DNA of 64,000 nt from contig JBAYKP010000004.1 in the NCBI GenBank assembly GCA_041664465.1, positions 6,876 to 70,875 of the forward strand, in the 5' to 3' direction. Below the pieces are notes generated by a model. That model saw nothing but the letters and a program-made list of their open reading frames with translations, searched no databases and was not told the DNA's origin. Each line of letters begins with the position of its first letter. Position 1 is the stretch's first letter. Of the stretch, positions 2,756-51,029 are shown piece by piece. Source of the stretch: Minisyncoccota bacterium. GTDB taxonomy: Bacteria > Patescibacteriota > Minisyncoccia > Phycocordibacterales > UBA9973. Both the position numbers and the translations under genes were made by a program.

Positions 2756-5700
2756 ATGAAAATAATAGATACAACAGATTTCGATTCAATAACACTCAAG
2801 CTTGCTTCTCCTGAGAGAATAAAGGAATGGTCATACGGAGAAGTGACAAAGCCAGAAACTATCAACTATCGTACCGGTCGCTCCGAACGCTCAGGTCTCT
2901 TCGACGAAAGAATTTTCGGTCCAGAGAAAGATTACGAATGTTACTGTGGTAAATACAGAAGAATTCGTTACAAAGATATAATTTGTGAAAAATGTGGAGT
3001 GGAAGTTACTCGCTCTATCGTTCGCCGTGACAGAATGGGGCATATAGAGCTAGCATCCCCAGTATCGCATATTTGGTTCCTACGTGGGGTGCCAAGCCGC
3101 ATGTCTACGCTTCTCAATATCTCAGTCTCAGACTTGGAGAAAGTTATTTATTTTGCAGGATATATAGTAGTCAGTGTCTCAGCAACTGAAAAAGAAACTA
3201 TCACCAAGAATCTAGAAAGTGAATTCAAATCAAAAATCAAAAGTGCCAATAATGAAGAAGAAAAAGAAAAACTTAAAGAATTATTACTCAATACCAAGCG
3301 TGAGATATCTGAAATCGTCTTAGGTAAAGTCTTAAACGAGATAGCTTATCACCACTACGGACTCAAATACGGAAGTTGTTTCGAAGCAAGTATTGGAGCT
3401 GAGGCTATCTTCACTATCTTTAAGAATCTAGATTTAGAAAAATTGAAGACAGAGACGGCGGCAATGCTTCCAAAAGCCAGCAGTATAGATAAAGAAAAAT
3501 TGGAGAAGAGGATGTCCCTTATCCGCTCAATGATTCACTCTGGTATCAGACCTGAGTGGATGTTCCTCACTGTTATCCCAGTTATCCCTCCTGCTCTTCG
3601 TCCGATGGTGGCTCTTGATGGTGGGCGTCACGCGACTTCCGACTTGAACGATTTATATAGAAGAGTTATAAACAGAAATAATCGTCTTAAGAAATTAAAA
3701 GAAATTGGGGCTCCAGATGTGATTCTAAGAAATGAGAAAAGAATTTTGCAAGAAGCGGTAGATGCTCTGATAGATAACTCCATCGCCAAGCAGAATGATT
3801 CTCAAGCTGTCTCGGCTTCTCAGAAGCGTGCGCTCAAATCTCTTTCAGATAATTTAAAATCAAAGCAAGGTTTATTCCGTCAGAATTTGCTTGGTAAGCG
3901 TGTGGACTATTCCGGACGTTCCGTGATCGTCGTTGGTCCAGGATTGAAGCTCAATCAATGCGGACTTCCAAAGCATATGGCACTTGAACTTTTCAAACCT
4001 TTCGTAATTTCCAAAATATTAGAGACCGAGCTTGCTTTCAATATTCGTGGTGCCAATAGACTAATAGAAGAAGGCACGCCAGAAGTCTGGGCAATACTTG
4101 AAGAAGTAATCAGGGGGAAGTATGTGCTTCTAAACCGTGCACCAACACTTCACAGACTTGGTATTCAAGCCTTTAATCCTATCCTTATAGAAGGTCACGC
4201 TATTCAAGTGCATCCACTTGTCTGTGCCGGATTCAACGCCGACTTTGACGGGGACCAGATGGCTGTCTACGTACCGCTTGGAGAAATGGCTCAAATGGAA
4301 GCAAAAGAATATATGGCTTCCAATAAAAATTTATTGAAACCGCAAGATGGATCACCGATCGTAATGCCGAAGATGGATATCGTCCTTGGTTGTTACTGGA
4401 TGACAAAAGGAGTAGATGGCGAACGTGGAGAAGGTATGGCATTTGCAAGTCCAAACCAAGCTATTACAGCTTTTGATCTAGGAGTCATTACTTTCCGTGC
4501 CAAGATTAAAGTCCTAGGAACTGAGAAAGCTCGCTATGCAAAATTTGCAGATAAACCTTTTGAGACGACTGTCGGTAAATTATTCTTCAATAGTATTTTC
4601 CCTGATGACTTCCCATACATAGAAGATGAGATTACTATCAAGCGTATGTCGCTCCTTGTAGATGAGCTCATCGTCCACTATGGTATAGATGCTACTCCAA
4701 AATTCTTGGATAAAATTAAAGATTTCGGTTATCAATATGCGACCTACTCAGGGGTGACTTGGGGTATTGATAATGTGACAGTGCCAGCTGGCAAGAAAGA
4801 GATTGTGGCTAAGTTCCGTAAAGAAGAAGAAGTTGTCCGTGATCAATATGCCGAAGGACTCCTCTCAGAAGAAGAGCAATATCAAAAAGTTATTGAGATA
4901 TGGGAACACGCCAAGAAAGAAATTGAAAAGATAATTCCTGCCACTTTGGATACGAAGGGTTCCACCTATGATCTTGTGACCTCTGGCGCTCGAGGTAGTA
5001 TGGGGTCTCTCATTCAGATGTGTGGAATGAAAGGACTCATTGTGAATACTTCCGGTGCGACTCTTGACTTCCCAATCATCCCTTCATACATTGAAGGACT
5101 TTCACCACTTGAATATTTCATCACGACTCACGGTTCTCGTAAGGGTGCCGCCGACACGGCCTTAAATACGGCTAAAGCTGGTTACCTTACACGACGTCTA
5201 GTGGATGTAGCGCAAGATGTTGTCGTAACAGAGGAAGATTGTGGCACGAAGAATGGCAAGACGATAGTAGCTGTCCAAGGTGCTTTCGCGAAGTATATTC
5301 ACGGACGAGTACTTCTTGCTGATATAAAAGGAGAGGATGGTAAAGTGGTATTTAAAAAGGGAACACTTATAATGAAAGAAGATGCAAGATTGTTAGAGAA
5401 AATGGGAGTGAAAGAAGCTCTCGTCCGCACGCCACTTTCTTGTGAGACGACTCACGGTATATGTCGTATTTGTTATGGTCTTGATTTGGGGCGAAATACA
5501 ATGATAGAGCTAGGACAAGCCGTTGGTATCATCGCGGCGCAAGCTATCGGTGAGCCAGGAACCCAGCTGACACTTCGTACTTTCCACGCGGGTGGAGTCG
5601 CGACTGTGGATATCACGACAGGACTTCCTCGTGTTGAAGAAATTTTCGAAAGAAGAATTCCGAAGAATCCAGCTATTATATCTCAGACTGATGGCGAAGT

Positions 5701-6373
5701 GATAGACATCACAGATAATGGCAAAGAAAAGACTATTAAAGTTCTCTCTGACTCAAAAGCAGATGGCAAGAAAAATGAAATGGAATATACAGTTGCTTTC
5801 CGTCGTCAGCCCGCAGTCAAAGTCGGGATGCATGTGAAGAAAGGAGAACTTCTAACTGATGGCTCAGCTGATATAAATGAAGTTGTGAAATATGGTGGCA
5901 AGGAAATGGCAGAAGAATACATCGTAGATGAAATCAATAAAGTTTACGATTTGCAGAGTGCTTCAATCTCACGAAAACATATTGAAATAATTATTCGCCA
6001 AATGTTCTCACGAAAGAGAATTAAAGATGCCGGCGATACGACTTTCTCTCCAGGTGAAATAGTAGAAAATATTGAACTCATAGAAGAGAATAATCGCCTT
6101 AAAGAAGAAGGTGGAGGTATAGAAGCTACGGCTGGAACTATTGTTCTAGGTATTACCGAAGTTTCCCTTACGACGAAGAGCTGGCTCTCAGCGGCTTCCT
6201 TCCAGAATACAAACCGCGTTCTTATCAACAATGCAATCCGTGGTGGAGTGGATAATCTACGCGGACTCAAAGAGAACGTCATCATTGGTGGACTTATACC
6301 AGCAGGTACAGGCTTCGGTGTAGAAAAAGCTCAAAAAGAAAAAGAGGAAGTGAATGAAGAAGTTGTTGCTTAA
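2756..6373 (+). CDS. rpoC: DNA-directed RNA polymerase subunit beta'
   Basis: 1205 aa. The N-terminal zinc-binding region (CYCGKY...CEKCGVEV), the NADFDGD catalytic motif and conserved C-terminal regions are all present. Confidence 0.97.
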   Translation: MKIIDTTDFDSITLKLASPERIKEWSYGEVTKPETINYRTGRSERSGLFDERIFGPEKDYECYCGKYRRIRYKDIICEKCGVEVTRSIVRRDRMGHIELASPVSHIWFLRGVPSRMSTLLNISVSDLEKVIYFAGYIVVSVSATEKETITKNLESEFKSKIKSANNEEEKEKLKELLLNTKREISEIVLGKVLNEIAYHHYGLKYGSCFEASIGAEAIFTIFKNLDLEKLKTETAAMLPKASSIDKEKLEKRMSLIRSMIHSGIRPEWMFLTVIPVIPPALRPMVALDGGRHATSDLNDLYRRVINRNNRLKKLKEIGAPDVILRNEKRILQEAVDALIDNSIAKQNDSQAVSASQKRALKSLSDNLKSKQGLFRQNLLGKRVDYSGRSVIVVGPGLKLNQCGLPKHMALELFKPFVISKILETELAFNIRGANRLIEEGTPEVWAILEEVIRGKYVLLNRAPTLHRLGIQAFNPILIEGHAIQVHPLVCAGFNADFDGDQMAVYVPLGEMAQMEAKEYMASNKNLLKPQDGSPIVMPKMDIVLGCYWMTKGVDGERGEGMAFASPNQAITAFDLGVITFRAKIKVLGTEKARYAKFADKPFETTVGKLFFNSIFPDDFPYIEDEITIKRMSLLVDELIVHYGIDATPKFLDKIKDFGYQYATYSGVTWGIDNVTVPAGKKEIVAKFRKEEEVVRDQYAEGLLSEEEQYQKVIEIWEHAKKEIEKIIPATLDTKGSTYDLVTSGARGSMGSLIQMCGMKGLIVNTSGATLDFPIIPSYIEGLSPLEYFITTHGSRKGAADTALNTAKAGYLTRRLVDVAQDVVVTEEDCGTKNGKTIVAVQGAFAKYIHGRVLLADIKGEDGKVVFKKGTLIMKEDARLLEKMGVKEALVRTPLSCETTHGICRICYGLDLGRNTMIELGQAVGIIAAQAIGEPGTQLTLRTFHAGGVATVDITTGLPRVEEIFERRIPKNPAIISQTDGEVIDITDNGKEKTIKVLSDSKADGKKNEMEYTVAFRRQPAVKVGMHVKKGELLTDGSADINEVVKYGGKEMAEEYIVDEINKVYDLQSASISRKHIEIIIRQMFSRKRIKDAGDTTFSPGEIVENIELIEENNRLKEEGGGIEATAGTIVLGITEVSLTTKSWLSAASFQNTNRVLINNAIRGGVDNLRGLKENVIIGGLIPAGTGFGVEKAQKEKEEVNEEVVA

Positions 6374-6402
6374 TAATTAATAAGAGCGAAAGCTCTTAAA
6401 TT

Positions 6403-8157
6403 ATGTCATCATCGGTAGATAAAATTAAAGAAAGGCTTTCCATTGTTGATGTTATTTCGAGTTACATACAGGTGGAGCAATCAGGAAAGAATTTCAAAGC
6501 TAAGTGTCCTTTTCACAATGAGAAGACGCCGTCATTTTTCATCTCGCCCGACCGAGGCACTTACTATTGTTTCGGTTGTGGGGAGAAGGGGGATATCTTT
6601 TCTTTCGTAGAGAAATTTGAAGGAGCTGACTTTATGGGAGCTTTGAAGTTACTTGCCGAAAGAGCTGGAGTTGAACTTCTATATGAAAGGGTAGATAAGA
6701 ATAAAGATAAAAAAGAATTGTATTTTGAAATACTAGAAGAAGCGACGAAATTCTTTGAAGCTAATTTTGAAAAAGAACCCAAAGTACGTGCCTACTTACT
6801 AAGCAGAGGTCTCAATGATACTAGTATTAAAGATTTCAGAATTGGATATGTCAAAGATGAATGGAGATCACTTTCTGATTATTTAATTGCTAAGGGTTAT
6901 AAGATAGAAGATTTGGAAACAGTTGGTTTGGTAAAGAAATCTGAAAAAGGTACATACGATAGATTCCGTTCTCGCATTATTTTCCCTATTAGTGATTCAA
7001 GTGGGAGAGTTATAGCTTTCTCGGGGAGGATATTTGGGAAGGATGATGCAACCGAAGCTAAATATTTGAATAGCCCTGATACGCCACTTTTCAATAAATC
7101 TAATGTCTTATTTGGTATAGATAAGGCGAAACTTTCTATAAGAAAAAGAGGATATAGTATTGTAGTAGAAGGACAGATGGATTTGATCCTTTCACATCAG
7201 GCAGACTTTACGAATACTGTCGCTGTCTCGGGGACGGCTTTCACTGACAGTATTACCAACAGTGAATCAAATATAAATAATTTAGGGCTTATCCGTCGTT
7301 TATCTTCCAATATTATTTTTGCTTATGATGGAGATAGTGCTGGAATAAGAGCGGCTAGTCGCTCAGCTATGATAGCTTTGTCTTTAGATATGCAAGTCAA
7401 AGTGGCACAACTTCCAGATGGGAAAGATCCCGCCGATATTATAAAAGATGATGTAGAGGAATGGAAAGATATTATTAAAAATGCGAAAGATATTATAACT
7501 TTTCACGTAGATAGAATTTGTAAAAATACAAATGATATAAGACAGAGAGGCAAGCTCGTCAGAGATGTCATCTTTCCTTTCTTAACTGTGGTGAAGAGTT
7601 CTATAGATAGATCTTCATATATGTCTATAATTCATTCTAAAACAGGGATACCAGCTTCGGCGGTGATTGAAGATTTTGGAGTTTATGAGAGGAACCATAT
7701 AGTAGAAAACAAGATAGAAAATTTAGATAATAAAGTAGTAGAAAAAGAAATAATTTCAAGAAGAGGTAATTTGGAGAAAAGATTGTTTGGGATTATTTTC
7801 TTACAAGAAAGAAATGACATTGGTATAGACAAAGAAGGAATTTTCTCTTTATTAAAAGAAAAAATAGGAGAAGATGAATTCCAGAAGATATATGAATTCC
7901 ATTCTCCATTTGGAGATGTCCTTGCGCAAGATATTGAAAGGTTGTATGGTGATAATATAAAAGATATTAATCGGCATATGGATGAGTTAATGTTAAATTT
8001 AGAAGGAGAAATTTTAGGAGAGCGTTTATTTTTATTAAGAGATAAGATTAACCAACAATCAAACTCAACTGAAAACTTTGATCCAGGTCCTATACTTATA
8101 GAGATACAAAATATAGGAGAAAGAATAGAAAAAATTAAAAGCAATAGGTCAAAATAA
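6403..8157 (+). CDS. dnaG: DNA primase
   Basis: 584 aa. CHC2 zinc finger ([30 protein letters not shown]), a Toprim region (VEGQMDLI...DGDSAG) and a C-terminal helper domain. Confidence 0.9.
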
Positions 8158-20014: not shown

Positions 20015-22249
20015 ATGAAAAATAAAGTATTCAAATTGAAGAGCAATTATAAGCCTGATGGTGATCAGCCGAAGGCGATTTCACAGTTGCTGGAAGGCTT
20101 AGAAAAGGGTATGAAGAAGCAGACTCTCCTTGGTGCAACGGGGACAGGCAAGACTTTCACTATTGCCAATGTGATAGAGAAGTGGAACAAGCCGACGTTG
20201 GTAATAGCTCACAATAAGACTCTTGCTGCTCAGCTTGCTCAGGAATTCAGAGAATTTTTCCCTGATGCGGCAGTACACTACTTCGTATCTTATTATGATT
20301 ACTACCAGCCGGAAGCTTATATGCCTATTACAGATACCTATATAGAGAAAGATGCTCAGATAAATAAAGAGATAGATCGTCTCCGCCATGCTACCACGCA
20401 GTCACTTCTGACTCGTCCAGATGTGATTATTGTGGCATCTGTGTCTTGTATATATGGATTAGGAAGTCCGGAAGAGTACGAAAAGGTAAATTTGAAACTG
20501 GAAATCGGCTCGAAGATTGGGAGGACTGATCTGATGAGAAGATTACTTGGGATACATTTTGAAAGAACGAATGCAGATCTCAATCCTGGCACTTTCAGAT
20601 CTATTGGGGACAGAGTCGAAGTGATGCCAATATCTGAGACTTTTGTATATCAAATCGAATTTTCTTCCCCTAGGCACGGCCTAGGGGAGAGTGTTGTTTC
20701 TAAAATTTTGAAAGTTGATCCAGTTTCTGCACATGTACTTAAAGAAGAGAAAAGCCTGCCCGACGGCAAGGCGGGTATTTTCTTATTCCCCGCCAAGCAT
20801 TTCATTACCGATGATGAAAGTACGAAAACTGCTATCAAGAATATTAAATTAGAACTTGCACAGCAATTAAAGAAGTTTGAGAAAGAAGGTAAATTACTTG
20901 AAGCCGAGAGAATTAAAAGAAGGACGAATTATGATTTGGCTATGATTAAAGAAGTGGGTTATTGCAATGGCATAGAGAATTATTCTAGACAGTTTTCTGG
21001 GAAAAAAGAAGGGGAAGCACCGGATACATTACTTTCTTATTTTAAAAATAATTTTCTGACTATTATTGATGAATCTCATGTGACTTTGCCTCAACTTGGC
21101 GGAATGTATGCTGGTGATGCATCACGCAAGAATACTTTGGTAGAGTTCGGTTTCCGTCTTCCTTCTGCGAAAGATAATCGCCCGCTCAAATATAATGAAT
21201 TTGAAGAAAGAATTGGAGACGTGATATATGTATCTGCGACGCCGAGTGAACAGGAAAGGACTATGAGTAATCAGGTAGTTGAGCAGATTATTCGCCCTAC
21301 AGGGCTTATAGATCCAGAGATATTGGTGAAGCCAGTGAGTGTGGGAGTTCCTCCCCTCCTTACTAAGGAGGGGACTAAGGGGAGGTTCTTAATTAATTCA
21401 CCTCTCCCTGACCCTCTCCTTGCAAAGGAGAGGGGGAATTCATACCCTGGTCAAATTGAAGATTTTATAAAAGAAGCGGATAGAGTTATTAAGAAAGGGT
21501 TTAGGGCGATAGCGACAACCTTGACGAAGAAGATGGCGGAAGATTTGAGCTTGTTCTTGAAAGAGAAAGGATATAAAGCAGAATATCTGCATAGTGATAT
21601 TAAAACTATAGAGAGAATTCAAATATTAACCCAGTTTAGAAAAGGGGACTTTGATATTTTGATCGGAGTGAATTTGCTTCGTGAGGGTCTTGATCTTCCG
21701 GAGCTTGCTCTCATAGGAATTTTAGATGCAGACAAAGAAGGATTCTTACGATCTACTACATCCCTAATTCAGATTATCGGCCGTGCAGCGAGAAATGTCG
21801 AAGGAAGGGTTGTGCTCTATGCCGATCATATGACGAAGTCCCTCGAAAGTGCGATAGATGAAACAACGAGAAGAAGAAATATACAGATAGCTTACAATAA
21901 GAAGCATGGCATTACTCCTGCGACGATTATTAAAAAGATTAAAGATATTACAGAAGAGCTTGAAGATAAGCATGGCAAGGCAGTGAACGCCGAACTTGAT
22001 CTAGATGTGGAATTATTTAAGAAAGCATTTGGAGCAAGTAAAAGTAATAAGGGTAAAGGTGAGAGAGAGTCAATAAAGAATCTACTCCTCTCAGATGAAG
22101 ATAGGAATAAAAATGTTTACGAAAAGATAATAAAGATAAAAGAGAAAGAAATGAATAAAGCGGTGAAGGAACTAGACTTTGAAACCGCGGCAATATTGAG
22201 AGATGAGATAGTGGTGTTGAAAAGTAAAAAGGCCACAACTGTTGAGTGA
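20015..22249 (+). CDS. uvrB: Excinuclease ABC subunit B, carrying an in-frame 37-codon insertion derived from a palindromic element
   Basis: 744 aa. Helicase motifs (GATGTGKTF, DESHVT), a beta-hairpin region, a C-terminal UVR domain (DFETAAILRDEIVVLK) and a TGA stop. Confidence 0.93.
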   Translation: MKNKVFKLKSNYKPDGDQPKAISQLLEGLEKGMKKQTLLGATGTGKTFTIANVIEKWNKPTLVIAHNKTLAAQLAQEFREFFPDAAVHYFVSYYDYYQPEAYMPITDTYIEKDAQINKEIDRLRHATTQSLLTRPDVIIVASVSCIYGLGSPEEYEKVNLKLEIGSKIGRTDLMRRLLGIHFERTNADLNPGTFRSIGDRVEVMPISETFVYQIEFSSPRHGLGESVVSKILKVDPVSAHVLKEEKSLPDGKAGIFLFPAKHFITDDESTKTAIKNIKLELAQQLKKFEKEGKLLEAERIKRRTNYDLAMIKEVGYCNGIENYSRQFSGKKEGEAPDTLLSYFKNNFLTIIDESHVTLPQLGGMYAGDASRKNTLVEFGFRLPSAKDNRPLKYNEFEERIGDVIYVSATPSEQERTMSNQVVEQIIRPTGLIDPEILVKPVSVGVPPLLTKEGTKGRFLINSPLPDPLLAKERGNSYPGQIEDFIKEADRVIKKGFRAIATTLTKKMAEDLSLFLKEKGYKAEYLHSDIKTIERIQILTQFRKGDFDILIGVNLLREGLDLPELALIGILDADKEGFLRSTTSLIQIIGRAARNVEGRVVLYADHMTKSLESAIDETTRRRNIQIAYNKKHGITPATIIKKIKDITEELEDKHGKAVNAELDLDVELFKKAFGASKSNKGKGERESIKNLLLSDEDRNKNVYEKIIKIKEKEMNKAVKELDFETAAILRDEIVVLKSKKATTVE
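21337..21447 (+). repeat. Copy R4: palindromic element inserted in-frame in uvrB (encodes SVGVPPLLTKEGTKGRFLINSPLPDPLLAKERGNSYP)
   Basis: Hairpins cccctcctt-act-aaggagggg and ccctctcctt-gca-aaggagaggg surround the core ggttcttaattaattcacctctc, which is the reverse complement of the R1 core. The flanking residues (LIDPEILVKPV / GQIEDFIKE) line up with the uninterrupted UvrB consensus (DPxIxVRP / GQIDDL). Confidence 0.75.
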
Positions 22250-22467: not shown

Positions 22468-25266
22468 ATGCGGGGACTGTTTAAATTTATGAAAAAAAAC
22501 GAAGAAGCAAAAATAATAATAAAAGGGGCTCGGACGCACCCCGAAGGAAAGAGTACTTCCTACGGGGCAGGCAATTTGAATATGGTTGATAAAATAGTTA
22601 TTCGAGGTGCTCGTACCCACAATTTAAAAAACATTTCTGTCGAAATGCCTCGGAATAAGATGATAGTAATTACTGGGATGTCAGGCTCTGGGAAGAGTTC
22701 TTTGGCCTTTGATTCTATCTTCGCCGAAGGTCAGAGGCGTTATGTGGAGAGTCTTTCAGCTTATGCTCGCCAATTCCTCAATCAAATGCCGAAGCCGGAT
22801 GTAGATGAGATTACAGGTCTTTCACCAGCTATCTCTATAGACCAGAAGTCACGTTCCAACAACCCTCGTTCGACAGTTGCAACTATCACTGAGATATATG
22901 ATTATCTTCGTGTTCTTTATGCGCGTATTGGACATCCTCATTGTCCTCTCTGCGGAGAAGAGATAAAAAAGTTATCAAATGATGAGATACTTCATTTTGC
23001 AATAGATAAGATAAAGAATTTTCAAAAAGATACAAAGAAAAACCCCGTAAAAAAGCAAAGCTTTAACGGGGCAAGGAAAGTTTTAGGCGTTGAATGGAAT
23101 GAAGCTCCCGTGTCTATTCTTGCCCCAGTTGTGAGAGGCAGAAAAGGTGAATATTATCAACTTCTTTATGATTTACTCAATAAAGGCTTTGCGCAAGTTA
23201 GACTTGATGGAGAGATAAAGAAATTGAGAGAAAGAATAGATATTTCTAAAACTAAGAAGCATGACATAGAAGTTATTGTGGATAGTTTCCAAATTCATGA
23301 ATTTAAAGATAATGAAAAGGATTCTTATTCACGTTTAGCTGAGAGTGTCGAGAGAGCTTTGCTCGAATCAGATGGCTTAGTGATAATTAAAATAGATGAA
23401 GAGGAGTACCTTATGTCTTCCAAGTTTTCTTGTGCTAATGACGGCTTTGCTTTCCCCGAGATAGAGCCAAGATTATTTTCTTTCAATTCTCCTTATGGAG
23501 CATGTCCAACTTGTAATGGTCTCGGGACAAAATATTTCGGCGGAGATGAAGCTTGTGATGATTGTAAGGGTCTTCGTCTTCGTACTGAAGCATTGCATGT
23601 GTACCTTGGTGAAAGCGCTTCGCAGAAACATCAAAATTCTTCCCGCTTTACCCTAAAGGGCTCCGACGCGGATAAGAATTTTGATTTTTCTGCTCCGCTT
23701 AACATCGTGGGTGTGACGCAATTATCAATTTCCGATGTTGCGGATTATTTCATTGAGTTAGAATTAAGCGATCAAGAGAAAGAAATTTCAAAAGTTATAA
23801 TAAAAGAGATAGAAGCTCGTCTTCAGTTCTTATTAAACGTTGGTCTTGATTATCTGTCTCTTGACAGAAAGGCCAATACGCTTTCTGGTGGTGAGGCTCA
23901 GCGCATACGTCTCGCTTCGCAACTCGGTTCACGACTTGTAGGAGCACTCTATGTGCTTGATGAACCGACGATAGGATTACATCAGAGAGATAATGATAAA
24001 TTAATTAAAACATTAGAAGACCTTCGTGATTTGGGTAATACTATTATAGTGGTAGAGCATGATGAAGATACTATCTTTGCGTCGGATTATATAGTAGATA
24101 TAGGACCTAAAGCCGGAGTTCACGGCGGGGAAGTGATAGTCTCTGGGTATCTTGATGAGTTACTTGATGCGAAGACTAATGCATCCAAGTCTAGAACTTT
24201 GGCTTATTTACGTAATGAAGCTCGGATAGAAATTCCAGAGAAGAGAAGAACGAGCGACAAAGGAACTTTGAAGATAGTCGGAGGGAAAATTTTCAATATT
24301 GATAATCTAAATGCTGAAGTGCCACTTGGCAAGCTTGTAACTATTACTGGAGTATCAGGAAGTGGCAAGAGTTCCTTCATGTATGAAATCTTACATAAAA
24401 ATCTACAAGCAAGATACGAGAGAAAGTTTCGAACCGCGAAAGTTTTCAACTGTGCATCTTTCACTGGTACAGAATATCTTTCTCGTGTCGTTCTCATAGA
24501 TCAGTCTCCAATAGGTAGGACACCTCGATCAAATATTGCTACCTATACAGGAGCTTTCACTCATATCCGTGATATGTTTGCATTGAGCGAAGAAGCACGT
24601 TTGAAAGGCTGGAAAGCTAATAGATTCTCTTTCAATGTAAAAGGTGGGAGATGTGAAGCTTGTGAAGGGAATGGTGAAGTCGCAGTTGAAATGCACTTCT
24701 TGCCAACAGTCTACGTGACTTGTGATGTTTGTAATGGCAAGAGATTCGATAAGGAAACTTTGACGGTAAAATACAAAAAGAAAAATATTTATGAAGTTTT
24801 GCAAATGACGGTAGAGGAAGCTTTTACTTTTTGGGAAGATATACCAGCAGTTTACGATAGGATGAAGACACTTATGGATGTAGGACTTGGCTATGTGAAG
24901 CTTGGCCAATCAGCGACGACCCTTTCAGGTGGAGAGGCTCAGCGTGTTAAAATTTCTACAGAGCTTTATAAGCCATATTGGGAGAAGACGATCTATTTAC
25001 TTGATGAGCCGACTGTTGGATTGCATTATGATGATGTGGCTAAATTGCTGGAAGTATTGAATAGACTTGTAGAGAAAGGTAATAGTGTAGTGGTGATAGA
25101 GCACAATATGGATATTATCAAATCATCTGACTATATTATAGATATAGGGCCAGAAGGAGGACTCTCTGGTGGGAAAATTGTTGCCAAAGGCACGCCGGAA
25201 GAAGTTGCTAATACGCCATCTTCCCATACGGGGAAATATTTGAAGAAAGTATTGAGAAAAAAATAA
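22468..25266 (+). CDS. uvrA: Excinuclease ABC subunit A (probable true start at ATG 22582)
   Basis: 932 aa. Two ABC ATPase modules ([18 protein letters not shown]; LSGGEAQR twice) and zinc-finger cysteine clusters. The canonical N-terminus [17 protein letters not shown] begins at codon 39. Confidence 0.93.
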
Positions 25267-26514
25267 ATGGATACAAATTCTGCCATGGCAGAATTTGTAT
25301 CCATAAAAAATATGAAAATACAAGATTTAAAAAAATTAAGAATTCCAGATAAATCAGGAGTCTATTTCTTTCTTAAATCAGCTAGGCAAGGCCTAGCTGA
25401 AAAGAATATTCTTTATATTGGTAAAGCTACCTCACTTCGGGATAGGGTAAAGAGCTATTTTTCTAAGGATTTAATCAATACTAGAGGTCCGGCTATTTTA
25501 GACATGACAGTAAGGGCAGATAATATAGAGTGGCAGGAGACAGATAGCGTCCTTGAAGCTTTGATATTAGAGGCGAATTTGATAAAGAAATATAAGCCGA
25601 AATATAATACGAAAGAGAAAGACAATAAGAGCTTTAATTATGTTTGTATTAACAAAGACGTTCCTTCAAAAATTTTGGTTGTTCGAGGCAGGAATTTGGA
25701 TAAAAGTTTATATAAGAATATTTTTGGACCTTTTCCGAATGGTAATTTATTAAAAGAAGGAATGAAAATAATCAGAAGAATATTTCCATATTTTGATTAT
25801 GATTCAAATAAAAAGAATAATAAAGAATTTTATAGACAGATAGGACTTGTTCCTAAAAATGAATATAATGAAAATATAAAAAATATTAAACTTCTTTTTC
25901 AAGGCAAGAAAAAAAGTATTATAAAAAATCTTAAAGCAAGAATGACTTATTTTTCAAAACTAAAAGATTTTGAAAATGCAGCACGAATTCGAGATCAAAT
26001 ATATGCGTTAAATCATATTAATGACATTTCGCTAATAAAAGATGAAATATATGGAAGTCCAACTTCCATATATAGAATAGAAGCATATGACGTTGCTCAT
26101 ATGAGTGGCAAGAATATGGTAGGGGTAATGACAGTAGTAGAAGGAGAGGAAGTAAATAAAAATGAATATAGGAAATTTATAATACGAACACAAAATGATG
26201 CCAATGATACCGGAGCCCTCGAAGAAATTATTTCTCGTCGATTGAGACATACAGAATGGGGGTTGCCCAATTTGATAGTGGTGGATGGAAGCATCGCACA
26301 GGTGAATGTCGCGAAGAGGGTACTTGGTCGTTATCAATTTGATATACCAATCGTAGGGGTGGTGAAAGACGAACATCATAGACCGAAGGCTATAATGGGT
26401 GATGAAAAGATAATTAAAGCTTATAAAAAGGAGATTCTACTTGCCAATAATGAAGCTCATAGATTTGCTATAACTTTTCACAAACAAAAGAGAAATAAAA
26501 GCTTTTTAAAATAA
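25267..26514 (+). CDS. uvrC: Excinuclease ABC subunit C, short form lacking the C-terminal (HhH)2 domain
   Basis: 415 aa. GIY-YIG domain (GVYFF...ILYIGKATSLRDRVKSYF, EALILEANLIKKYKPKYN), UVR domain (ENAARIRDQIYALNHI) and RNase-H-like endonuclease domain (RIEAYDVAHMSG...VVDGSIAQ...EAHRFAITFHKQKR). The gene stops immediately after that last domain. Confidence 0.8.
   Translation: MDTNSAMAEFVSIKNMKIQDLKKLRIPDKSGVYFFLKSARQGLAEKNILYIGKATSLRDRVKSYFSKDLINTRGPAILDMTVRADNIEWQETDSVLEALILEANLIKKYKPKYNTKEKDNKSFNYVCINKDVPSKILVVRGRNLDKSLYKNIFGPFPNGNLLKEGMKIIRRIFPYFDYDSNKKNNKEFYRQIGLVPKNEYNENIKNIKLLFQGKKKSIIKNLKARMTYFSKLKDFENAARIRDQIYALNHINDISLIKDEIYGSPTSIYRIEAYDVAHMSGKNMVGVMTVVEGEEVNKNEYRKFIIRTQNDANDTGALEEIISRRLRHTEWGLPNLIVVDGSIAQVNVAKRVLGRYQFDIPIVGVVKDEHHRPKAIMGDEKIIKAYKKEILLANNEAHRFAITFHKQKRNKSFLK
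25269..25302. repeat. 34-bp perfect palindrome ggatacaaattctgccatggcagaatttgtatcc at the uvrC 5' end (contains the start ATG)
   Basis: The sequence equals its own reverse complement and encodes DTNSAMAEFVS. A second copy lies inside miaA. Confidence 0.9.
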
Positions 26515-40274: not shown

Positions 40275-40340
40275 GTCAGCCACAAGTCGGACTTGTGGCA
40301 GAAATTATTTTGTAACACTTGCAAACGGCCGTTGCTAAGT
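40275..40340. terminator. Paired palindromes after the surface-protein gene, the second followed by a T-run (likely terminator)
   Basis: 19-bp palindrome ccacaagtc-g-gacttgtgg, then an imperfect hairpin aacacttgcaaacgg/ccgttgctaagtgtt, then ttggtttt. Confidence 0.35.
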
Positions 40341-40394
40341 GTTGCAAAGTTAAAAACTTGGTTTTAAGTATATTTTATTGTATTATTTAAATAT

Positions 40395-47248: not shown

Positions 47249-47352
47249 TTAAGAATTAATAATTACGAATTAAACTAAAAAATTACAATTAAGAAACGGC
47301 CGTTTCTTAATTGTAAAACGACTAAATTTACAAATTTAGTCGTTTTAGTTTG

Positions 47353-50021: not shown

Positions 50022-51029
50022 TTATTTATTTTCCAGTCTTTTCTTTGCATTCAAAAACTTCTTTATTTCTCTCAGAGCCTTAGTTTTTTCTGTATTTTTT
50101 CTTGGGTCTATCCAAAGAGTATTGGGGTCGCGTTTGAACCAAGTCTTTTGACGTTTAGCAAAATGCCAAATTTCTGTATAGAGTTTTTCTATCATTTCAT
50201 TCTTCGCCTGCCGTAGCCTTAGCGAAGGCAGGTTTTTTATCTTTTGCAGATATAGTGCTACATATCTGTATTCTAATCCCAAAGCATTTAGTCTTTTCCA
50301 AGATACTCCACTTTTATGCAAATTTTCCACCTCTTTTATCATTCCTTTTTTCATACGGGCGAGTAGGCGAGTCTTGATTCTTTCTTTAAGAATTTCCGGT
50401 GGTAGAGTCAACCCAATTTTTAAAACTTCAAACTTATTACTGGATACAAACTCTGCCATGGCAGAGTTTGTATCCTTTGGTCCTAAGCGTGGCTTATGAC
50501 CGAGAGGGGGAACTTTACCTATTGCGGTAGCTATCTCGATAGCACGGATTAATCGCACAGGATTATTGGTATCAATATTTTTGACTCGGTTTTTATCTAA
50601 TTTTATTAAAATTTTAAGAAGTTCTCCCGCAGACTTTTTAGAAAGTTCTTCTCTGAGCTTTTTATTTGGGGGAACATTTGGGAATACAGTTCCATTTACT
50701 ATTGCATCTATGTAGAAACCTGTACCTCCACAGATTATTGGTACTTTGCCCCTACTAATAATTTCTTCTATTTTTTTAAACGCCATTTTTTGAAATTCAT
50801 TTACAGTAAAAACTTTAGATGGAGAATATATATCAAGTAAATGATGTGGAATCCCTCTCATTTCTTTCTTTGTAATTTTCCCTGTACCCAAATTCATTCC
50901 TTTATATACCTGTCTAGAATCAGCAGAAATTATCTCGCCGTTTATTTTCTTAGCAATTTCTACGGCAAGGTCACTCTTCCCAGTGGAAGTTTGACCTAAT
51001 ACAACAATGATCTTATCCATATTTCGCAT
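50022..51029 (-). CDS. miaA: tRNA dimethylallyltransferase
   Basis: 335 aa with P-loop VVLGQTSTGKSDLAVEIAKK, ISADSRQVYKGM and the MiaA core. An embedded palindrome encodes DTNSAMAEFVS. Confidence 0.88.
   Translation of the reverse strand: MRNMDKIIVVLGQTSTGKSDLAVEIAKKINGEIISADSRQVYKGMNLGTGKITKKEMRGIPHHLLDIYSPSKVFTVNEFQKMAFKKIEEIISRGKVPIICGGTGFYIDAIVNGTVFPNVPPNKKLREELSKKSAGELLKILIKLDKNRVKNIDTNNPVRLIRAIEIATAIGKVPPLGHKPRLGPKDTNSAMAEFVSSNKFEVLKIGLTLPPEILKERIKTRLLARMKKGMIKEVENLHKSGVSWKRLNALGLEYRYVALYLQKIKNLPSLRLRQAKNEMIEKLYTEIWHFAKRQKTWFKRDPNTLWIDPRKNTEKTKALREIKKFLNAKKRLENK
50442..50475. repeat. 34-bp perfect palindrome ggatacaaactctgccatggcagagtttgtatcc inside miaA (second copy)
   Basis: It differs from the uvrC copy by one symmetric base pair and encodes the identical peptide DTNSAMAEFVS on the minus strand. 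Confidence 0.9.

Follow-up and report, generated by a model that had tools for sequence, protein, structure and literature searches.

The window, i.e. the whole stretch of 64,000 nucleotides that was analysed, carries two perfect 34-bp palindromes. They lie where the preliminary description had placed them and, as it had stated, differ by a single symmetric pair (T/A versus C/G, 8 bp from the dyad). GGATAC arms are common to both, and at copy 1 the perfect symmetry extends over 38 bp (25267-25304). A search of the window with three mismatches allowed returned these two sites only, with 0.00 matches expected from 100 shuffles. The palindromes and the genes around them are as follows:

22468-25266, plus strand: uvrA, identified by its ORF and translation; homologous to UvrA of locus L082
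25269-25302: palindrome copy 1, GGATACAAATTCTGCCATGGCAGAATTTGTATCC, in the uvrA/uvrC intercistronic spacer
25312-26514, plus strand: uvrC with the corrected start ATG 25312 (BLASTP against L082 UvrC, M1 to M1, E = 8e-174)
50022-51029, minus strand: miaA, host of copy 2 (Pfam IPPT, E = 2.8e-63)
50442-50475: palindrome copy 2, GGATACAAACTCTGCCATGGCAGAGTTTGTATCC, in frame within miaA, product K-DTNSAMAEFVS-S
50479-50501: a second, unrelated hairpin adjoining copy 2 in miaA, GGTCCTAAGC gtg GCTTATGACC, with 9 of 10 arm pairs

Two nucleotides separate the uvrA stop codon TAA (25264-25266) from copy 1. In the mechanical ORF call uvrC begins with ATG 25267, so that the palindrome is read through. Another ATG at 25312, 9 nt past copy 1, yields a protein that begins with MKIQDLKKLRIPDKSGVYFF. 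The Pfam match to the GIY-YIG domain sets in at residue 30 if the long ORF is counted and at residue 15 if counting starts with M-25312. In L082, a different Paceibacteria genome, the same palindrome with other outer arms is located in the uvrA/uvrC spacer (5224-5257); UvrC starts 17 nt past it, begins with MKKNDLKKHKLPDKPGVYFF and aligns residue 1 to residue 1 with the protein from ATG 25312. Because of the position of the GIY-YIG domain, the presence of ATG 25312 and this alignment, we concluded that the start at 25267 is spurious. ATG 25312 is the real start of UvrC, which places copy 1 in an intercistronic position, within the 45 nt that separate ATG 25312 from the uvrA stop. Thus the proposed N-terminal extension of UvrC was a mis-called start, and of the two copies described as coding only copy 2 is so. 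Likewise, DTNSAMAEFVS is indeed present in both mechanically called ORFs, but miaA is the only gene of the window that translates it, and that both ORFs share it merely follows from self-complementarity; it is not a functional module that was gained. In several other loci false "MAEFV..." ORF starts were seen as well, because the CCATGG centre provides an ATG on both strands.

As RNA, copy 1 folds at -25.3 kcal/mol with a z-score of -9.6. The terminator scan detected a T-run past the stem on the minus strand only, and no U-tract follows the stem on the sense strand. Copy 1 may be a secondary site of the element, either a bound roadblock or a hairpin in the mRNA that ends 9 nt short of the uvrC start.

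The uvr genes hold further palindromes and inserts. In uvrB (20015-22249) two near-perfect G+C-rich palindromes, TCCCCTCCTTactAAGGAGGGGA (21352-21374) and CCCTCTCCTTgcaAAGGAGAGGG (21412-21434), encode PPLLTKEGT and PLLAKERG in an apparent insertion of UvrB and belong to a different class of in-ORF hairpins, presumably the first class to which the preliminary description alludes. The N-terminal part of uvrA contains an imperfect G+C-rich palindrome, CCCCGAAGGAA...TTCCTACGGGG (22539-22567), in an insert of about 23 amino acids that is lacking in L082 UvrA and has directly duplicated GARTH codons at its borders (IIIKGARTH...VIRGARTH). A 20-nt inverted repeat of uvrA (23622-23693, 95% complementary, 32-nt spacer) is probably another inserted hairpin. 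Compared with the window UvrC, the L082 ortholog (5275-6711) carries three similar inserts of about 27 amino acids (...QKNIFRKVLGRG...QKYF), which look like three copies of a larger ORF-invading repeat.

Copy 2 is located at a site where the alignment with solved MiaA structures shows a gap of 12 residues, the extra residues forming a loop. The site is likewise empty in about 35 of 119 close orthologs, which agrees with the earlier suggestion that the 11 residues are a lineage-specific insertion. Judged by these alignments, copy 2 is a genuine in-frame, lineage-specific loop insert in MiaA. The exact peptide was found at this site in 16 of the 120 closest MiaA homologs and symmetric variants in many more (TFSAMAENV, TLSAMAESV and centre variants with G, P or R). 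MiaA of L011, which is 72% identical, has the palindrome at the same site with different arms, and the L028 variant is devoid of the CCATGG centre, its symmetry still being perfect. Other orthologs carry unrelated palindromes at this place, e.g. one encoding LGPKPRLGPK, the intact form of which is present in L029. The hairpin at 50479-50501 is a decayed form of the latter; it folds side by side with copy 2. In a tree of the masked MiaA alignment the insert states were interspersed, including sister pairs with and without insert, and L127 and L128, the closest relatives of the window MiaA, carry the same imperfect element in opposite orientations. Copy 2 would be a secondary site as well, tolerated within a permissive loop of MiaA.

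Palindromes of other kinds were also noted. Next to tRNA-Leu a perfect 34-bp palindrome, TTACAATTAAGAAACGGCCGTTTCTTAATTGTAA, abuts a palindrome with 16-nt arms (47283-47316 and 47314-47347), and an imperfect 40-bp palindrome at 40309-40348 has the same ACGGCCGT centre. Together they may represent another repeat family. Unrelated G+C-rich perfect palindromes reside in housekeeping ORFs, namely pheT of L124 (7834-7871) and the ArgS loop of L110 and L091. Hairpins inserted in frame seem to be characteristic of these genomes in general.

The search for more copies found many, most of them intergenic, and the notion of a repeated element was borne out. The exact core CAAANTCTGCCATGGCAGANTTTG is present at 27 loci of GTDB species representatives, nearly all of them Paceibacterota, Nomurabacteria or Campbellbacteria MAGs, and in 91 stretches of JGI metagenomes. 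The viral contigs scanned for the exact core gave zero matches, and a phage origin was discarded on these grounds. A looser definition, TCTGC-N4-GCAGA plus complementary arms, yielded 151 copies from public collections, 125 of them unique and nearly all from Paceibacteria; the G+C-rich "Thioalkalivibrio" matches L022 and L056 look like unrelated chance matches to the core. Distribution, gene association, promoter geometry, symmetry and reading frame were read directly from these copies. The literature searched held no description of such palindromes, and Rfam returned no family for three loci, which excludes a known RNA family there. The palindromes are a previously undescribed repeat family of Paceibacteria, members of the candidate phyla radiation.

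The general layout is AC-N4-TCTGC-(CATG)-GCAGA-N4-GT plus 4-5 variable, complementary outer pairs; GTAG occurs in some arm variants only. In a symmetry profile of 120 copies positions 1-13 from the dyad were conserved, partly owing to the design of the search. All four bases were used at positions 14-17, with a complementarity of 98-100% versus 39-54% expected, and position 18 was complementary in 87% versus 27% expected. Positions 19-20 are A/T-rich and 72-78% complementary, and from position 22 outward complementarity was at background. These limits define the unit as a palindrome of 36-40 bp. The positions 14-18, variable yet 87-100% complementary, are suggestive of a hairpin or cruciform, or else of template switching from arm to arm, by which quasi-palindromes are known to mutate.

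Several familiar types of element were considered and set aside. A selected NcoI or restriction site is not tenable since CCATGG is replaceable by centres with TATA, ACGT, GATA or GG/CC while the stem is kept. A DNA uptake sequence was rejected because there are no isolated half-sites: in 254 kb every half-site with up to one mismatch belongs to a full palindrome. CRISPR arrays were dismissed as copies are single or form pairs 540-620 bp apart that enclose a gene. Single MAGs contain at least 3-4 exact-core copies. Contigs of 704 kb and 362 kb were each represented by one fetched stretch and one exact-core copy, and 1-2 nearby variant copies bracket a PaaX_M-like gene (see below). At the start of one contig (L009, 1-150) perfect symmetry extends over 69 pairs around a copy, probably a fold-back assembly artefact.

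The 125 unique copies are distributed as follows:

between co-directional genes: 37 of 125
in an ORF: 28 of 125
between convergent genes: 27 of 125
between divergent genes: 21 of 125
at a contig edge: 12 of 125

Copies recur at orthologous places of different genomes with different arms, as in the uvrA/uvrC spacers of the window and of L082. Further recurrent sites are the MiaA loop (16 copies), the ArgS loop (5), the ORF of a DGR-type reverse transcriptase (4), the Pgk ORF (2), the pgk/HIT spacer (3) and the 3' ends of genes for Zn-ribbon proteins of about 570 amino acids. The ArgS loop resembles that of MiaA in accommodating alternative palindromes. Every one of the 28 in-ORF copies is translated in the frame xTNSAMAEFVx. 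Since a second frame, YKLCHGRVC, is always open as well, the use of a single frame suggests selection on what the host protein tolerates. The neighbouring genes belong largely to DNA and dNTP metabolism (tmk, dut, nudix, glyA, thyA, folA, dCMP deaminase, dnaE/rnhB, uvrA/uvrC).

When distinct loci of one MAG were compared, 8 of 10 pairs had the same variable outer arms (permutation P < 1e-5), which indicates copying or homogenisation inside genomes. Upstream and downstream copies of one and the same gene have different arms in L025, L027, L071 and L108. Arms that co-evolve with a protein as specificity determinants are unlikely because one gene can carry two arm types; rather, the arms look like markers of common descent or copying.

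The gene in question is conserved, codes for a protein of about 158 amino acids and is directly flanked by 51 of the 125 unique copies. Wherever both flanks were within the fetched locus there was a copy on each side, the two being 540-620 bp apart. The protein matches PF20803 PaaX_M (E = 1.2e-11, 45 bits, cut-off 24) and passes the Cas2 model TIGR01573 marginally with 25.5 bits versus a cut-off of 24.5, while the PaaX equivalog TIGR02277 scored 19.8 bits with a cut-off of 264.55. Neither PaaX_C nor Y1_Tnp was detected with Pfam and NCBIfam. In a profile search and with Foldseek on a structure model the C-terminal half matched Cas2 structures, and the Asp of the FDIP motif is invariant. Because the model is poor (pLDDT 63) and usable for the Cas2-like half only, the N-terminal winged helix is assigned from family membership. 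The family comprises at least 665 and 1072 clusters at 90% identity in two hit sets, which may overlap, and pipelines label its members "PaaX" or "Cas2". No PaaX_M-like gene was found within the 64-kb window. Many contigs with the gene are only 557-650 bp long, roughly the distance from palindrome to palindrome, suggesting that assemblers break at the repeats.

Promoters were assigned by consensus in 26 upstream copies oriented with the gene to the right. A perfect TATAAT was present in 25 of the 26 and began exactly 15 nt past the 34-mer in 21. The start codon of the PaaX_M-like gene follows 6-10 nt after this -10 box, which implies a leaderless mRNA. With a spacer of 17 nt from TATAAT the predicted -35 element (TTGTAx) falls inside the palindrome arm. 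On the divergent side a TATAAT was located 24-25 nt from the palindrome edge in 14 of 26 copies, ahead of a gene that is most often tmk, and a TTGGAA-like -35 element abuts the palindrome. Being placed between two divergent -10 boxes, this founder copy would not be transcribed from either promoter and must act as DNA. By its geometry, the upstream founder copy is in what appears to be a classical operator position.

A second subfamily of the protein, about 50-57% identical, is encoded in other neighbourhoods (RNase H, ComEC, RecJ, HIT/Pgk, UvrD). Its gene is also bracketed by related sites, which have a GATA/TATC centre. In L123 the half-site is changed from TCTGC to TWCGC at both gene flanks and in the convergent spacer of pgk and HIT (TTTACGCCATGGCGTAAA), a spacer that has the canonical site in three other loci. 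The coordinated change at separate loci of L123 argues for a reader acting in trans or for re-copying from the founder.

Three findings together make a protein paired with its site the best supported reading: the founder copy is part of a promoter, the gene is always bracketed, even where its neighbourhoods are unrelated, and the core has changed in a coordinated way. Specifically, the 34-mer would be the operator of the protein of about 158 amino acids with a winged helix and a Cas2-like (PaaX_M) domain, copied around the genome in the manner of REPs, a proposal which in our estimate has an even chance of being right. Founder copies would bracket the gene, the upstream one carrying the -35 element of a leaderless promoter and abutting the divergent tmk promoter. 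This position would imply autoregulation along with control of the deoxynucleotide and DNA-repair neighbourhood. From these sequence data we infer protein binding, any regulation by the site and the mode of copy spread: the small protein most likely binds the palindrome and regulates its own gene, and probably it controls the adjacent DNA-precursor and repair genes as well. Further copies may have been duplicated to, or maintained at, recurring places, mostly just past stop codons, and within ORFs in frame where a protein loop tolerates the insert. Duplication or homogenisation of copies in the genomes is indicated by several REP-like features: the symmetry is long and perfect, copies are found at 3' ends, orientations are flipped, arms are identical within genomes, and solo copies lie between nudix and tmk in L024 and L033, where the PaaX_M-like gene is missing. 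The evidence favours the direction of the preliminary description, which had putatively named a protein-binding site or hairpin. It had not anticipated the link to a winged-helix/Cas2-like gene, the arrangement of the promoters at the founder copies or the return of copies to orthologous sites in different genomes.

Several observations speak against an operator. The 64-kb window itself has no gene for the protein. Non-founder intergenic copies are mostly found 0-45 nt past stop codons or between convergent genes, a position typical of terminators or REPs. Perfect complementarity over 18-20 pairs is more than a dimeric helix-turn-helix protein requires; such pairing could reflect selection for a hairpin or cruciform and equally well arm-to-arm template switching. 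The arms differ within the pair of one gene and are not specificity determinants, the L028 variant at the MiaA site is perfect even without CCATGG, and miaA, argS, pgk, ileS and atpC do not fit into a regulon of DNA metabolism.

Some of this would be explained by a selfish REP- or MITE-like repeat without a regulatory role, which is possible but in our view rather doubtful. Its spread might be catalysed in trans by the flanked Cas2-like protein, similar to a RAYT, and copies would be kept only where they are harmless, i.e. at gene 3' ends, in permissive loops and in the only frame that is tolerated. Like a RAYT gene between its REPs, the gene has copies on both sides, arms are uniform across unrelated loci of one genome, and MiaA proteins that have, lack or have replaced the insert are intermingled in the tree, down to sister pairs with and without it. 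The opposite orientations of one imperfect element in MiaA of L127 and L128 and the solo palindromes without the gene (L024, L033) are in line with mobility, as are the unrelated palindromes hosted by the MiaA and ArgS loops in other lineages and the many assemblies that break at copies (contigs of about 560-650 bp). The single frame of 28 out of 28 in-ORF copies is expected for purifying selection on random insertions. But random transposition does not predict the same few sites in many genomes, and the copy number is low, with one exact-core copy per contig of 704 kb or 362 kb. No target-site duplication, transposase or HUH domain was seen. Moreover, the founder copy lies within a conserved promoter at single-nucleotide spacing, and the core changed in step at several L123 loci.

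An RNA element is an unlikely alternative. It would form a very stable stem-loop that terminates or attenuates transcription both ways or protects mRNA 3' ends, and in a uvrA-uvrC transcript it would gate uvrC initiation. Fold energies of -25 to -36 kcal/mol with z-scores of -7 to -10, the location of copies 0-45 nt past stop codons or between convergent genes and the terminator scan, which flagged copy 1 on the minus strand, are consistent with this idea. So are positions 19-21 from the dyad, which are rich in A on the left side and in T on the right, and the 2-4 central nucleotides, which vary and flip like a hairpin loop. Yet the founder copy between divergent -10 boxes would not be transcribed from them, copy 1 lacks a U-tract on its sense strand, the average T-run is short, and Rfam gave no family for the three loci. 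A terminator requires neither a 26-nt sequence conserved across genera nor residence in essential ORFs.

Slightly less likely still, the Cas2-like protein might be a Cas1-independent nuclease or DNA-handling partner of the extruded hairpin, which copies or homogenises palindromes of 34-36 bp, the size of spacers. If this were true, the system would correspond to REP/RAYT in function but employ a Cas2 fold. It would rank as a new class among the mobile or "domesticated" repeat systems of bacteria, and it would afford a view of how Cas2-like proteins deal with palindromic repeats outside CRISPR. Finally, chance similarity or an ancestral coding sequence common to uvrC and miaA, for which nothing but the shared peptide speaks, can practically be dismissed: the shuffle control predicts zero matches, the 125 unique copies are mostly non-coding, and the MiaA alignments with distant orthologs and solved structures lack the segment.

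The operator with its Cas2-like protein, our preferred reading, would be of interest because regulation in bacteria of the candidate phyla radiation is almost uncharted. A conserved pair of regulator and site near genes for thymidylate, dUTPase, Nudix, Uvr, RecJ, UvrD and ComEC functions would constitute a concrete, testable regulon, by which nucleotide-scavenging organisms would control DNA precursors and repair. The family is also a clean case of a protein-linked palindrome that resides in essential ORFs in a single reading frame. For annotation it is a practical warning, as false start codons arise from the CCATGG centre and the palindromes interrupt assemblies.

In its mode of action the family would come closest to REP/RAYT or to an operator of the PaaX type, yet it lacks defining features of either, namely the HUH transposase of the former and the full PaaX architecture and equivalog score of the latter. 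Among known systems, intrinsic terminators differ from the palindromes by their U-tract, which is missing here; the T-run of copy 1 is on the minus strand only, and copy 2, inside an ORF, has none. Sites of the parS/ParB or matS type are similar in that a highly conserved palindrome is present in few copies, some of them in ORFs, and is bound by a helix-turn-helix protein, which is presumed here. Yet there is no sequence similarity, and the sites described here flank the gene of their own protein and have variable complementary arms.

Rickettsia palindromic elements share only the in-frame, translated insertion of palindromes into permissive regions of housekeeping proteins, and the inserts in MiaA, ArgS, Pgk and the reverse-transcriptase ORFs, which are missing in orthologs, are of this kind. 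With 100-150 bp those elements are larger than the unit of 34-40 bp, occur in a different phylum and have neither an associated gene nor a promoter-embedded founder copy.

PaaX with its operators in the phenylacetate catabolon is comparable in its central Cas2-like domain, in a palindrome overlapping the promoter and in the divergent layout of regulator and operon. On the other hand, the protein of Paceibacteria is half the size, has no PaaX_C and scores far below the equivalog cut-off. Its neighbours serve nucleotide metabolism and DNA repair, not phenylacetate degradation, and the site is 36-40 bp long, perfectly symmetric, dispersed and also present in ORFs.

With respect to the REP/RAYT systems of Proteobacteria, the flanked protein is of the winged-helix plus Cas2-like type and not an HUH/Y1 transposase (IS200/IS605-like) as RAYT. 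Copies number a few to about ten per genome compared to tens to hundreds of REPs, and the palindromes are perfect, loopless and without a fixed GTAG head. About one fifth of them (28 of 125) are in ORFs and the founder is in a promoter, whereas REPs are strictly extragenic. Common to both are short palindromes repeated in the genome, mostly at gene 3' ends or between convergent genes, in several copies per genome (two in the 64-kb window and at least 3-4 with exact core in single MAGs), with genome-specific variants and with a small single-copy gene that is flanked by them on both sides.
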